Shown piece by piece: positions 5,406-42,801 of a stretch of 64,000 bases of DNA; the first letter of the stretch is position 1, and each line of letters starts with the position of its first letter. A model generated the notes under the pieces. It saw nothing but the letters and a program-made list of their open reading frames with translations, was not told the origin of the DNA and did not search any database. The translations under genes and the position numbers were made by a program. This DNA is from Escherichia phage ph0011: sequence record OP557969.1; one strand, written 5' to 3'.

Positions 5406-5414
5406 TGATATAAT
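5406..5414 (+). promoter_or_regulatory. extended -10 promoter element (TGaTATAAT)
   Basis: TGATATAAT about 30 nt upstream of ATG 5446; same motif recurs at four other intergenic sites. Confidence 0.35.
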
Positions 5415-5445
5415 GTTTATTACATTAACGTAAAGGAATAATCCT

Positions 5446-5712
5446 ATGAATACTGAGAAGGTAATGTACAATCGATATCGTTGTGGTAGACCAACCCTAG
5501 ATTATGAATCTACTGAAAATTTCTGGAGATTTATCAAAGATTCAATTGTTGATGTTATCGGTAGAGATCGAGTAAATGCATGGGCTAGTATATATCGTGA
5601 CAATAATGGTGAAACATTTTTCATCACATATGTTTCTGTGTATGACGAAAACGAGATGATTGTGGATTTACTTGAATGTTTAGTAGGGAAAGATTTAATA
5701 GAAATTGTATAA
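5446..5712 (+). CDS. hypothetical protein
   Basis: 88 aa; ATG with AAGGAA upstream; no motif recognised. Confidence 0.55.
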   Translation: MNTEKVMYNRYRCGRPTLDYESTENFWRFIKDSIVDVIGRDRVNAWASIYRDNNGETFFITYVSVYDENEMIVDLLECLVGKDLIEIV

Positions 5713-5730
5713 AATACATGGAGTAGTATA

Positions 5731-6357
5731 ATGGGAAGACACATAATTGCAATCAATGGAACTATTGGAAGCGGGAAAGATACTTTTGCTAAAACATTCA
5801 TTGAAAATGGATATACAAAAATGTCATTTGCGACCAATCTAAAAGATTCGGTTGCTTCTATTTTTGGTTGGGATCGTGAAATGCTCGAAGGAACTACCAA
5901 GGAAAGTCGAAAGATTCGTGAAGAGCCAGATCAGTACTGGTGTAAAAAGATGGGACGTGATGATGTTTCACCTCGTTGGGTACTACAAAATTACGGAACT
6001 AATATTTTACGTAAGTATTTTCATAATGATATCTGGGTATTTAGTTTAGAAAAAACAATGCAAGAAATTGATGGAAATATTATCATTACTGATTGTCGTT
6101 TCCCAAATGAATTAAAAATGATTAGATCACAAAACGGAACTATTATTGAAGTACGTCGTGTACTTCCACATTGGTATGGTCTAGCGGCATCATATAATAA
6201 AAGAAATATTTCTATTAAACCAGTAGAACTTGAAACAGTCCATGAATCTGAATGGGCTTGGATTGGAATAAATTATCCTGATATTATTGTACATAATAAT
6301 GGTACACTAGAAGACTTACAGAAAAAAGCATTGGAGATTATTTACTCTAATATGTAA
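5731..6357 (+). CDS. deoxynucleoside monophosphate kinase (T4 gp1-like)
   Basis: 208 aa; N-terminal P-loop INGTIGSGKDTFA matching the T4 dNMP kinase signature (SGKDT); GGAG RBS. Confidence 0.7.
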   Translation: MGRHIIAINGTIGSGKDTFAKTFIENGYTKMSFATNLKDSVASIFGWDREMLEGTTKESRKIREEPDQYWCKKMGRDDVSPRWVLQNYGTNILRKYFHNDIWVFSLEKTMQEIDGNIIITDCRFPNELKMIRSQNGTIIEVRRVLPHWYGLAASYNKRNISIKPVELETVHESEWAWIGINYPDIIVHNNGTLEDLQKKALEIIYSNM

Positions 6358-6413
6358 AATATAAACAATAAAGACTGGTCATTTAAATCCTTCAATAAAT
6401 AAGACTATACGAA

Positions 6414-39885: not shown

Positions 39886-39897
39886 AACAACACCTCC

Positions 39898-41241
39898 TTA
39901 TTTGTCAGTGAAAGTTATTTTCCAATATCCTTGACGATAAACTGGCATAATACTTTTATGCCATTTAAATTTACCATTGTATCTATAATAACCATTATCT
40001 TCGTTGTTATAAATGTAATTACGCACAGTTGATGGGTCAATTAATTCAGCACCGTCGTTGGTAATTTTAAACAAATAATTCGAAGGAATTTCAGTTTCTT
40101 TGTAAATGATGTTATGCATACTGTTATTTACGTAATATTGTTCAGGTATTGCATCAAAAAGAACTGAGCTTTTTTGGACAAATCCATGAATAGTATAATC
40201 AACTGTATAGTTGCTACTATCAAGCTGAACGATAATTTTATTTGCATCTTCATCTTCACCATATGAAGAAATATAGCCTTTGAGTGGATTATCTTCTTCG
40301 ATTGATTGTTGAAATTTAATACCGACTTTTTTATCATCAAAATTGGGTTCCAAATATTTAAGATATTTTTCCCATGAGTATATACCACCATTAGGGGAAA
40401 CATCGGACAATGACTGACTAACTAAAGTTAGTTGATATGTATCTGGTAAATTATATAAAGAATTAGTTATCTCTTCAACTTTAATACATAAGTTTTTTGG
40501 TGTAAAGACATCAGTGATAATATCCGAATAGTCAGACATTTCAATGTCAAATTCATCACGAGCACCTTTTATATTAGTAGTGATCTGTTGAATCAATTTT
40601 GGTTTTTCAACAATAGCTGGTAAAGAAAACCATATTGTTGTTTCAAATGTCAATACCATAATGTCTAAATCTTGGTCAGTTCCTTGTGGAAATCCACGTG
40701 TAGAGAACTGACAATCAATCAACTCTACATCACTTAGTGATGTCCAATCCAACGGGTTTTCAGATAACTGAAGTTGAATACTCGGTGAAAATAAAGTTGA
40801 AATTTGCTCAAATAATTCCATCTTTGTTTGTATTTGAGTTACCCAGATATTCAAATCAAATGTAAATGTCCAAGGAACTGGGTTATGTCTTACGATTTTA
40901 TATTGTGAATCGAGTTCTTTTTTGTATTCATTAATGGCAGGTGATGTGTTTGTTCCCATAACTAATGTTTCATTCGCATTAGAACGTATACTTTTACGAT
41001 CCAGCTTTAGTTGATTAACACTGATTGTCATAATTGGTGCAGATGGAAGAACATTTTCACTATTACCATTGATAATTGCAGCAGCCATTCTTGATATATC
41101 CGCATAACGACATGGAACCTTTTTATATTTTGGGTTCCCATCAGCATCAACACCATTTTGTACTTGAAATTCACCAAAAACTCTGATAAGATGTTTCAGT
41201 ACTCTGCGAAATTGGCCGTCATAATAATAATCTATTTTCAT
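39898..41241 (-). CDS. tail completion / sheath stabiliser, T4 gp15-like (tentative)
   Basis: 447 aa; N-terminus YYYDGQFRRVLKHLIRVFGEFQV...VPCRYA resembles T4 gp15 N-terminus recalled from memory; start overlaps upstream stop (ATGA). Confidence 0.45.
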   Translation of the reverse strand: MKIDYYYDGQFRRVLKHLIRVFGEFQVQNGVDADGNPKYKKVPCRYADISRMAAAIINGNSENVLPSAPIMTISVNQLKLDRKSIRSNANETLVMGTNTSPAINEYKKELDSQYKIVRHNPVPWTFTFDLNIWVTQIQTKMELFEQISTLFSPSIQLQLSENPLDWTSLSDVELIDCQFSTRGFPQGTDQDLDIMVLTFETTIWFSLPAIVEKPKLIQQITTNIKGARDEFDIEMSDYSDIITDVFTPKNLCIKVEEITNSLYNLPDTYQLTLVSQSLSDVSPNGGIYSWEKYLKYLEPNFDDKKVGIKFQQSIEEDNPLKGYISSYGEDEDANKIIVQLDSSNYTVDYTIHGFVQKSSVLFDAIPEQYYVNNSMHNIIYKETEIPSNYLFKITNDGAELIDPSTVRNYIYNNEDNGYYRYNGKFKWHKSIMPVYRQGYWKITFTDK

Positions 41242-42731
41242 TCTGTGTCCTTATGTATACGATAAGCTGTATTTGGTTTAACTGCGTCATGTAATGGAAC
41301 TTTATTATCACTATTTACGAACTTAGTAAGTGCTAAATCTGCACCTTCCCACGGTTTTCTACCACCGTAATCAAAAATAACCCATGAATTCTTAGTTGCA
41401 TTGAATTCCCACAGTGTAACTGGTGTATAATCAGTACGGTAAAAGTAATCACCATCAACTGCATCAGTAGGGAACATGTTTCCTTCTGGAACTGTACCTC
41501 TTGCTGGTGGGATTTTAGGGCGATAATCCTGTTGTGCATCAATATTTCCATATACACAACTTGATGTGAATGGGTCATTGACGTAAGTTACTTTTGGTTC
41601 GCCCCATTTACCATCATTGTACTGAAAAATGTGTGGTTCTTTATAAAAAATACAAAAATCTTCAATATCTTTTGGTGGATTTTCACTGGTCGTGTATTCA
41701 ACATCACAATTTAACCATTTTTTAACACTTTTATCGTACTGGTATAGTGTATACCCAGTTACATCTACATCATTCTCTTTAAAGAAGAAATCACCATCCA
41801 TAGGTTTCTTAGGAAAAACGGTTCCACGCTTGACTTCCAGTGAAATCCATGTATCATTATCGTATTCTTTAAGTATTGGGTATGTTTTTTTCAAAAAATA
41901 CATACCACTTGCAGGTTCTTCGGGGAAATCATATCCATTAAGCATATACTTTGACAAATCAACAGTATCACGACGGTCATCATACAAATGCTCGTTGGTA
42001 TAATGAATATAAGGCACTTCATCATCAGCTTGCATAATGATACGATTCATAATATCCATTTCATTACTATAGTTACTGTTATCAGATGTACCATCATCAG
42101 TGTTACCATTACCATTATTTGGATCATTTGGGTTATCAGGGTAATTGTTGTTTCCTAGTAAGTCGGAGTACTCAGGAGAGTCAGTCAATGGCTTTACTCG
42201 AAGTTTATAAATGTGATGTTGCCAAGTAACAGAGTAACCTTCTGCTGTACGAAACGCATCTTGGACCACATAGAAGCGATTCAGACCAGAATCTTTACCA
42301 AGAACATCATAATCACGTAAATTTGGTAGTTCAATTACATCACCAGGCATGATTTTTCTACCCAATCGTTGCATCATGGTATTGTAGTGGATTGTAATGT
42401 CCATCGTGTTGAAATTAAAGAACAAACCTGGAATTTTCAAGTCAGGTGTTGCTTCTTGAACTTGATAGACACAACTTAGTGTGATTGCTTCAAGATTATA
42501 GTTTCTATTTGGGGTGTCTCCAAAAATTAAATCACCAATACTTGACACAACCGATCCAGAAGATGTATAATCACCGCCATATGATAAGTCTTTGTTATCT
42601 GCAACTTGTTTTGGGCCGACATAAGCGTAAAGCCACATGTCAACACCACCAATGTTGTATTGTTCAGCAATGGCAGAGTCAATGAACTTGTAATCATTGG
42701 TTCTACCTTTTTTCCACATTCTATATGTCAT
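41238..42731 (-). CDS. neck protein, T4 gp14-like (tentative)
   Basis: ATG at 42731 preceded by GGAGA (track ORF starts at TTG 42743); weak resemblance to gp14 in the region MPGDVIELPNL...YKLRVKP. Confidence 0.4.
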   Translation of the reverse strand: MTYRMWKKGRTNDYKFIDSAIAEQYNIGGVDMWLYAYVGPKQVADNKDLSYGGDYTSSGSVVSSIGDLIFGDTPNRNYNLEAITLSCVYQVQEATPDLKIPGLFFNFNTMDITIHYNTMMQRLGRKIMPGDVIELPNLRDYDVLGKDSGLNRFYVVQDAFRTAEGYSVTWQHHIYKLRVKPLTDSPEYSDLLGNNNYPDNPNDPNNGNGNTDDGTSDNSNYSNEMDIMNRIIMQADDEVPYIHYTNEHLYDDRRDTVDLSKYMLNGYDFPEEPASGMYFLKKTYPILKEYDNDTWISLEVKRGTVFPKKPMDGDFFFKENDVDVTGYTLYQYDKSVKKWLNCDVEYTTSENPPKDIEDFCIFYKEPHIFQYNDGKWGEPKVTYVNDPFTSSCVYGNIDAQQDYRPKIPPARGTVPEGNMFPTDAVDGDYFYRTDYTPVTLWEFNATKNSWVIFDYGGRKPWEGADLALTKFVNSDNKVPLHDAVKPNTAYRIHKDTE

Positions 42732-42773
42732 ATTTGTCTCCAAAATAATTCGGGTATATCTTTATTTACCATG

Positions 42774-42801
42774 TAGACAAACCATAAGAATGTGATATAA
42801 T
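42774..42801 (+). promoter_or_regulatory. sigma70-type promoter with extended -10 upstream of ClpA-like gene
   Basis: TAGACA, 16-nt spacer, TGTGATATAAT; lies in the divergent intergenic region. Confidence 0.45.

Follow-up and report, generated by a model that had tools for sequence, protein, structure and literature searches.

Which role is played by a 9-mer, TGATATAAT, that recurs between the genes of a phage tail module, and does it mark promoters of a single temporal class? The question is raised by a 64-kb stretch of Escherichia phage ph0011 (record OP557969.1), which has been analysed at its full length and is called the window in the following. A preliminary description of this DNA had listed the 9-mer at 5406, 17655, 17745, 20815 and 42793, always intergenic and upstream of plus-strand non-structural genes, and had proposed it as the extended -10 core of an early promoter class, next to T4-late-like boxes in front of structural genes. 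Megablast has placed the window among the RaK2-like jumbo myoviruses, genus Asteriusvirus, with ∼89% nucleotide identity to the Escherichia phages UE-S1, 121Q, PBECO4 and phAPEC6, and synteny with the annotated genomes of 121Q and UE-S1 identifies a neck, tail sheath/tube, tail fibre and baseplate module that is interrupted by a few non-structural cassettes. The 49 curated genes leave 2,392 bp (3.7%) of intergenic DNA, with a GC content of 27% compared to 35% for the whole window. Very probably, the five copies are the -10 cores of sigma-70-family promoters that start pre-replicative, non-late transcription of the non-structural cassettes between late structural operons.

All five positions have been found to carry TGATATAAT on the plus strand, and they represent every intergenic copy of the window. 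The statement that the motif is always intergenic has to be given up, as the window holds ten copies on both strands, five of which lie within genes (8064, 37588 and 48255 on the minus strand, 12000 and 25217 on the plus strand), the two plus-strand ones having been missed. The motif is far from being equally frequent in coding DNA, since half of its copies (5/10) fall into the 3.7% of the sequence that is intergenic (binomial P=1.6e-5). Dinucleotide shuffles of the window have yielded 2.70 ± 1.62 copies against the 10 observed, and in shuffles of the intergenic DNA 0.12 copies are expected against 5, a number reached in 0/1000 trials.

The gene context points in the same direction. Each of the five copies is co-oriented with the next gene, and the genes that follow are non-structural, as had been described: a hypothetical protein (hyp549) and a deoxynucleoside monophosphate (dNMP) kinase 3' of 5406; a MoxR-like AAA ATPase and a DUF2201/VWA/metallopeptidase protein 3' of 17655 and 17745; two hypothetical proteins (hyp565, hyp566), a DprA-like protein and ThyA (thymidylate synthase) 3' of 20815; and a ClpA/B-like ATPase 3' of 42793. 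The end of the -10 box lies 31–38 nt before the ATG at 5406 (31 nt), 20815 and 42793, and 169 nt and 259 nt before it at 17745 and 17655, respectively. When upstream gaps of at least 25 bp are compared, a co-oriented TGnTATAAT precedes 4/7 non-structural genes versus 0/18 genes of the structural cluster (Fisher P=0.003). The layout is that of the extended -10 (TGn/-10) promoter of Escherichia coli, in which region 3 of sigma-70 reads the TG that precedes a consensus TATAAT by one base and the -35 contact is dispensable (PMC2988021): all five sites have a perfect TATAAT directly preceded by TGA (TGTGA at three of them) and precede a gene of the same orientation by a stretch that would suit a 5' untranslated region. 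The extended core is often longer, reading TGTGnTATAAT. The RNA polymerase of E. coli, equipped with a sigma-70-type factor, would contact TATAAT through region 2 and the TG through region 3, so that a perfect -35 element would be dispensable. Unlike the E. coli element, the one in the window, where the promoters are predicted, belongs to a phage-wide family with its own conserved upstream box.

Conservation has separated the intergenic copies from those in genes. Compared with UE-S1 and 121Q, the former are preserved in 9/10 cases, and 4/5 intragenic ones are mutated in 121Q; for this lack of conservation, and as none of the five has a match at -35, we have discarded the intragenic copies as internal promoters. 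UE-S1 and 121Q both have GTGATATAATG at 5406 unchanged, although identity in the alignment around it is only 77%. P1, the promoter at 17655, is conserved in UE-S1, 121Q (TGATACAAT there) and phage A4, and P2 at 17745 is invariant in the same three phages. In front of the ClpA gene, TGnTATAAT is invariant in eight phages from at least five lineages (the window, 121Q, Ec-M-J, JNE01, Klebsiella phage RCIP0023, Salmonella phage Munch, Pectobacterium phage CBB and Yersinia phage fHe-Yen9-03), with as little as 51% protein identity and a scrambled spacer, while the -35 position of the orthologs reads TAGACA, TTGACA, TGGGACA or TGGAAC. The promoter of gp565, the ortholog at the 20815 site, shows one order in seven phages, consisting of a terminator, a GGRACA-type box, an unconserved 12–13-bp spacer, TG(A/G)TATAAT and a GGAG ribosome-binding site; the terminator stands at the same place in Turkey3, JNE01, Munch, RaK2 and fHe-Yen9-03. 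This footprint covers five genera, both footprints reach ∼51–55% protein identity, and the boxes that persist at the -35 position over both are TTGACA, TAGACA, GGGACA or GGAACA. The two are classic phylogenetic footprints, as left by a promoter in two parts. Independently of this, the annotators of fHe-Yen9-03 have labelled TGGTATAAT and TGCTATAAT as -10 signals at the orthologs of the ATPase, ClpA and gp565 genes in its GenBank record.

These data also bear on the simplest alternative, namely that the copies are functionless chance matches in AT-rich spacers. The low GC content of the intergenic DNA speaks for it, as does the finding that plain TATAAT is not enriched there (14 versus 10 in shuffles) and that generic promoter scans stay at chance. 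It is opposed by the 9-mer counts, by the strict orientation and gene-class association, by conservation across genera against diverged flanks, and by the decay of the coding copies. Such an origin is extremely improbable, and shuffles, footprints and decay together have effectively refuted it. The interpretation of the 9-mer as an extended -10 promoter core is supported by enrichment, gene context and conservation.

The individual sites are built differently. At 5406..5414 (+), with TATAAT at 5409–5414, the box serving hyp549 and the dNMP kinase directly follows an intrinsic terminator found by scan (5370..5397, +; hairpin AGACTCCATTTTTTTGGGGTCT and a T-run), which closes the upstream unit and is kept in UE-S1 and 121Q. 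No -35 element is recognisable, the hexamer at this position (GGGTCT) falling within the terminator stem, and the site would be a pure TGn/-10 promoter. The promoter of hyp565, hyp566, the DprA-like gene and thyA (20795..20823, +) likewise stands directly behind a scanned terminator, which follows hydrolase564 (20760..20787, +; GAGAACGGAATTTTCCGTTCTC and a T-run); it consists of the -35-position box TGGGATGA, a 12-bp spacer and TGATATAAT, and its -35 position reads TGGGAT in the window and TGGGAC in 121Q (TGGGACAA there). The likely start codon of hyp565 lies at 20858 and is preceded by GGAGAG. With a terminator immediately upstream, the cassettes at 5406 and 20815 appear to be shut off from upstream transcription and restarted on their own. 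The promoter of the ClpA/B-like ATPase (42773..42801, +) has GTAGACAA, including TAGACA at 42774–42779, followed by TGTGATATAAT; together with 20815 it would fall into a GGRACA-type -35 class.

The two remaining copies derive from a 90-bp tandem duplication. P1 (17620..17663, +) comprises an A-rich UP-like tract, TTGACA (17635–17640), a 17-bp spacer and TGTGATATAAT, and with 12/12 matches and the TG it is the best sigma-70 match of the scan, combining UP, -35, TGn and -10 in full. Its duplicate P2 (17711..17753, +) has an A-rich tract, TTGACG (17726–17731), a 16-bp spacer and again TGTGATATAAT and matches at 11/12 with TG, which makes P1 and P2 the top matches of the region. Their combination of UP-like tract, TTGAC(A/G) and TGn is the architecture of very strong 'early' promoters of host sigma-70. 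The -10 of P2 lies within a 7-bp inverted repeat, GATGTGA-N8-TCACATC. CRP-like palindromes (TGTGA...TCACA) lie over both -10 boxes, with spacings of N11 at P1 and N8 at P2, the one at P1 being broken in 121Q and UE-S1.

Interest beyond the routine attaches only to the conserved leader behind P1 and P2. Between them and the ATPase gene (ATPase563) lie a terminator- or attenuator-like hairpin (17815..17862, +; AAAGGAACTG...CAGTTCCTTT and then TACTTTTG) and a third promoter-like site, P3 (17853..17881, +), which is conserved, consists of TTTACT, 17 bp and a TATAAT without TG, has its -35 in the T-tract of the hairpin and ends 41 nt before the ATG. One may ask whether P1 and P2 produce a leader or small RNA of ∼100–190 nt that ends at the hairpin, P3 being the real promoter of the ATPase; we hold this to be a tentative proposal, on balance doubtful. 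The hairpin and its T-tract are invariant across four Asteriusviruses, which leaves no covariation to test, and the fold is predicted to exceed shuffled sequences in stability (z=-3.6). The 301-bp gap (17600–17930 region) surpasses its flanking genes in conservation: its mean column identity between window, UE-S1 and 121Q is 94%, and 85% with A4 included, compared to ∼89% overall. An ORF (open reading frame) of 11 codons in the P2 leader (MIHEVTKELIS) is not conserved in A4, which is in line with an RNA product, and we have rejected it as a gene. On the other hand, the T-tract (TACTTTTG) is weak, Rfam has returned no family at gathering score in the window, with sub-threshold noise only at 17600–17930, fHe-Yen9-03 lacks a leader of this kind and has a single promoter, 52 nt ahead of the ATG, and read-through into the ATPase gene is equally possible.

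A perfect TTGACA joined to a terminator hairpin (TTGACAAGAAGGATACCTAATGGTATCCTTCTT) has been noticed after the ATPase gene (19263–19295), followed by a poor -10, TATCCT; it may be a decayed terminator-promoter cassette. In 121Q, a terminator-promoter cassette occurs at least 11 times as GGGTTGACTTCGGTCAGCCC-TTTT-TGCTATAAT, with a -35 (TTGACT) within the terminator stem, for example at record positions 98722, 109303, 110585, 112753, 144948, 148642, 151940 and 153864, and the same hairpin is found among the CBB terminators (Torf515, Torf518, Torf520).

Structural genes are preceded by a different element. The preliminary description had assigned boxes of the type TATAAATT at 6414 and 12211 to them as T4-like late promoters, of which the placement has stood up and the exact word has not: the two sites precede the tail sheath and head-completion genes by 32 and 14 nt, but TATAAATT itself is not enriched (15 versus 12.6 expected window-wide, 4 versus 1.55 intergenic and not significant; P=0.045 in 121Q) and has been dismissed as the late box. 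The actual late box is ATAAATA, with the variants ATAAATT and GTAAATA. ATAAATA is generally avoided in the window (13 copies versus 38 ± 6.6 expected); all 13 copies lie on the locally transcribed strand, and 12/13 stand 6–87 nt upstream of structural genes, some of them within the 3' end of the preceding gene. In 121Q, 33 of 55 copies are intergenic, plus 5 edge cases (P=1.5e-18).

On the plus strand, the series begins before the tail sheath gene with ATAAATA at 6395 and ATAAATT at 6415 (6395..6421; 20 nt apart, the latter being the former 6414 site) and continues with ATAAATA at 9465..9471, 35 nt upstream of tail tube 552, the variant ATAAATT at 12212..12218 (the former 12211 site) before the head-completion gene, ATAAATA at 13233..13239, 29 nt before struct557 and within the 3' end of hyp556, and ATAAATA at 13759..13765, 43 nt upstream of struct558. 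On the minus strand, two boxes at 26348 and 26401 (26348..26407) lie 34 and 87 nt upstream of struct569. A divergent pair (37094..37135) in the gap 37058–37166 serves tail574 (37094, -) and struct575 (37129, +). The minus-strand variant GTAAATA of struct580 (42763..42769) stands back-to-back with the -35 of the ClpA promoter in the 96-bp gap 42744–42839, a layout that CBB shares with its late Porf_234 (ATAAATACGGTATA) and Porf_235. Further minus-strand boxes precede a structural gene of 3333 aa (55172..55178), the gp6-like baseplate gene (58733..58739, 56 nt upstream) and lysozyme586, where TATAAATA, the perfect T4 late consensus, at 59693 is accompanied by ATAAATA at 59710 (59693..59716).

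An ATAAATA core just upstream of virion genes and avoided elsewhere resembles the late promoters of T4 (TATAAATA; gp55, gp33, gp45) and the late motif predicted in CBB and GAP32. The relative 121Q encodes an annotated gp55-like late sigma (gp591), which by 121Q position lies ∼1.5 kb past the right end of the window and presumably reads ATAAATA. In contrast to T4, the first T of the octamer is not conserved, TATAAATA occurs in only 1/13 copies, and TATAAATT is a minor variant. The sequence therefore allows at least two promoter classes to be read, as had been suggested, with TGnTATAAT accompanying non-structural and a T4-late-like box structural genes.

The larger question is whether the TGnTATAAT sites form one class and whether it is an early one. 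We have addressed it in the 348,532-bp genome of 121Q, which has been assembled from annotated stretches and in which ORFs with refined starts have reproduced 18/19 of the annotated starts checked. The census confirms the intergenic preference (42/101 TGnTATAAT copies versus 10.9 expected, P=2e-15), and the logo of the 42 intergenic sites, unselected for their upstream part, has tGGGaCa in the -35 position, and its TG is preceded by a G. Two sigma-70-like classes have emerged. Class A, with 88 sites at ≥5/6 matches, consists of an A-rich tract, TTGACA, 16–17 bp and TATAAT, carries TGn in 26/88 and concentrates at 84–110 kb and 135–156 kb, where short hypothetical ORFs and a sigma-70-like gene, gp167, are found. 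Class B, with 20 sites, reads TG(G/A)GACAA, 11 nt, (G)TGnTATAAT and carries TGn in 17/20, an association with the box that is strong (odds ratio 15, P=2e-9). It precedes ssb (twice), primase, exonuclease, topoisomerase II, tRNAs and gp565, and also the nudix gene shortly outside the left end of the window, the DNA polymerase region and the late sigma gp591. A matrix derived from the 121Q sites chosen for the box, among them the 121Q ortholog of 20815, scores 20815 at 25.7 bits, 42793 at 21.9 bits and 17745 weakly and finds nothing within genes; in this matrix, built from sites selected for the box, the box contributes 0.7–1.9 bits at 8 positions. A class-B promoter, TGAGACAA...TGCTATAAT (326623, +), also points into an 837-bp stretch of 121Q that has no annotated gene (326508–327345).

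A comparable division has been predicted for CBB, where MEME has delivered three promoter classes whose motifs also occur in GAP32 (PMC5259590, Tables S5–S7). The first, found in the small-ORF region, is RpoD-like and includes an UP element; a divergent RpoD-like 'Promoter 1', TGAAACG-N13-RTGNTATAAT, stands before DNA-synthesis genes and the gp55-like sigma (Table S6); and the late motif is ATAAATA (PMC5259590). A close counterpart is thus 'Promoter 1' of CBB and GAP32, an invariant RTGnTATAAT with a non-canonical box at the -35 position ahead of DNA-metabolism and gp55-like sigma genes. Its core is found at all five window sites, in the form GTGATATAAT at 5406, 17655, 17745 and 42793 and ATGATATAAT at 20815, and the 42793 site occupies the orthologous position of CBB Porf_235, a 'Promoter 1' before the ClpA-like gene, of which it is a direct ortholog. 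The boxes vary by lineage: TGAAACG in CBB, TG(G/A)GACAA in 121Q, TGGGATGA as a lineage variant at 20815 and a partial one, GTAGACAA, at 42793. The literal CBB box (TGAAACG or TGAAAC) has been set aside, as it is never intergenic in the window or in 121Q; the lineage variant TG(G/A)GACAA takes its place. Unlike 'Promoter 1', 17655 and 17745 carry TTGAC(A/G), and 5406 has no box. The CBB class and that of the window are alike predictions made in silico.

A label of 'early' for the whole motif class is not supported by these comparisons. In T4, the early promoters have the order UP/-35/TGn/-10, and around half the middle promoters, in which a MotA box replaces the -35, carry TGn as well (PMC2988021), so that TGn alone cannot tell early from middle; moreover, class B of 121Q precedes replication genes. 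Nor do the five sites form one uniform class, as their -35 regions read TTGAC(A/G), TGGGAT, TAGACA or nothing recognisable. P1 and P2 do resemble T4 early promoters, with A-rich tract, TTGAC(A/G), TGn and perfect TATAAT; unlike these, the full set is present at only 2/5 sites, and both lie inside the structural module instead of an early region. It would be rather unlikely that all five are immediate-early promoters read by the unmodified host sigma-70 holoenzyme with no phage protein needed. In its favour, TGn/-10 needs no -35 contact, P1 and P2 have precisely the T4 early order (PMC2988021), and the ClpA promoter carries a plain TTGACA in some Asteriusviruses and in Klebsiella phage RCIP0023. 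It sits poorly with the scarcity of TGn in the TTGACA promoters of the small-ORF, presumably early region of 121Q and its frequency in the GGGACA-type class, with the replication and late-sigma genes that the latter precedes, and with the frequent TGn of T4 middle promoters. In PA5oct, the only relative with RNA sequencing (RNA-seq), short uncharacterised ORFs are early, and DNA-metabolism genes rise from 15 min, at the middle and late time points.

The GGRACA-type class is probably middle or delayed-early, because its 121Q members precede replication, nucleotide-metabolism, tRNA and late-sigma genes; the order of expression in PA5oct is in agreement with this. A stronger version, in which the GGRACA-type TGnTATAAT sites (20815, 42793 and class B of 121Q) require a phage early product, is a serious possibility that nonetheless falls somewhat short of even chances. 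Either a sigma-70-like factor (the gp167 homolog) would replace host sigma-70, or an activator would bind the box and host sigma-70 the TGn/-10, similar to sigma appropriation by AsiA and MotA in T4, and the cascade would run from host sigma-70 through the phage factor to the gp55-like sigma. The box is kept at a fixed distance across genera in spite of the scrambled spacer and is strongly tied to TGn; the class-B genes listed above for 121Q, together with CBB Porf_244, which precedes the gp55-like sigma gene, fit such a role. The overall layout is that of T4 middle promoters, with a host-type -10, with or without TGn, and a phage-specific element in place of the -35 ahead of replication and nucleotide-metabolism genes. 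It differs from them in the position of the box, which stands at -35 with a 16–17-bp spacer instead of at -30 as the MotA box does, and in the presence of an own sigma-70-like factor of the phage; a T4 MotA box (TGCTT) is absent between -40 and -20 at all five sites, which speaks against this version. So does the similarity of GGGACA and GGAACA to TTGACA, with which they share GACA or ACA: orthologs switch between the forms, and the box may be a weak sigma-70 -35.

The sigma-70-like protein of 121Q, gp167, possesses regions 2, 3 and 4, and its gene lies in the region of TTGACA promoters, which counts in favour of this version. In an alignment with RpoD, region 3 changes from 'IPVHMIETINK' to 'FPRYMSVHKIK', by which H455 becomes Y and E458 becomes V. 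These are the region-3 residues that we take to read the TG, and their loss favours host sigma-70 at the TGn sites and thereby an immediate-early use. Within Asteriusvirus, gp167 changes at a far higher rate than the remaining genome, with identities of 99% in PBECO4 and phAPEC6, 84% in UE-S1, 59% in Ecwhy_1 and BF17 and 56% in JNE01. The idea that the phage protein co-varies with the -35 box has been abandoned, since the sigma falls to 35–56% identity (over the whole range from 99% to 35%) while the box hardly changes and stays GGRACA. As gp167 does not keep the presumed TG residues and diverges under a constant box, and as GACA is common to GGGACA and TTGACA, it is no less plausible that the box is a weak host -35 than that a dedicated factor reads it.

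In its widest form, the proposal would make the GGRACA-type sites a dedicated middle class of all RaK2-like jumbo phages (Asteriusvirus, Alcyoneusvirus, Mimasvirus, Eneladusvirus and the Munch-like phages) within a three-step sigma cascade, with the fast-evolving sigma-70-like protein or an activator with host sigma-70 as candidate readers and a conserved small leader RNA from P1/P2 as a by-product; this is speculative and, in our estimation, rather unlikely.

For the more limited assignment of the five copies as sigma-70-family promoters of pre-replicative cassettes, several observations weigh on the other side. As 17655 and 17745 go back to one duplication, the window offers only four independent loci instead of five. 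P1 and P2 may not drive the ATPase gene, from which they are separated by 169–259 nt, a terminator-like hairpin and P3. The five sites differ at the -35 position, even among orthologs, and perhaps belong to more than one regulatory class. Scanning with a generic sigma-70 consensus stays at chance level (86 matches versus 85.7 in shuffles), and plain TTGACA is not significantly enriched in the window relative to intergenic composition, so that, with the scan at chance, the case rests on the specific 9-mer and its context. A literature search covering 121Q, PBECO4, phAPEC6, Sharanji, UE-S1, fEgEco12 and RaK2 has found no transcription start site (TSS), time-resolved RNA or promoter data for Asteriusviruses or RaK2. 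Position, orientation, enrichment, conservation and gene-class association of the copies are direct observations, from which promoter activity, the sigma factor that reads the boxes and the timing are inferred.

Two regions of the window differ from 121Q. Between the neck gene and the 5406 promoter, the window has an ORF of 664 aa with a DUF7487 domain (3369–5363), which is present in UE-S1; in 121Q it is missing, and terminator and promoter come directly after the neck gene. The thymidylate synthase behind the 20815 promoter (22347–23987) measures 546 aa in the window versus 309 aa in 121Q and is similarly long in UE-S1 (517 aa). The in-frame insert of ∼245–275 aa, roughly residues 120–385 in the window, has no Pfam match and holds two copies of TGGTATAAT (23079, 23145).

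All three promoter classes have already been predicted for CBB and GAP32, and the finding is an ordinary one for phage genomics; the lineage form TG(G/A)GACAA may be undescribed and is a small variation on a predicted class. What has been gained is a working promoter map of one Asteriusvirus-type jumbo phage's tail module, with cassettes that would be transcribed independently and boxes that mark the late genes, and a three-class scheme whose predictions had been limited to CBB and GAP32 now includes coliphages. Practical use can be made of it in annotation, in the design of RNA-seq and TSS experiments and in the choice of strong phage promoters. The understanding of phage transcription would be changed by it only if the GGRACA-type box proved to be read by a phage-encoded factor.

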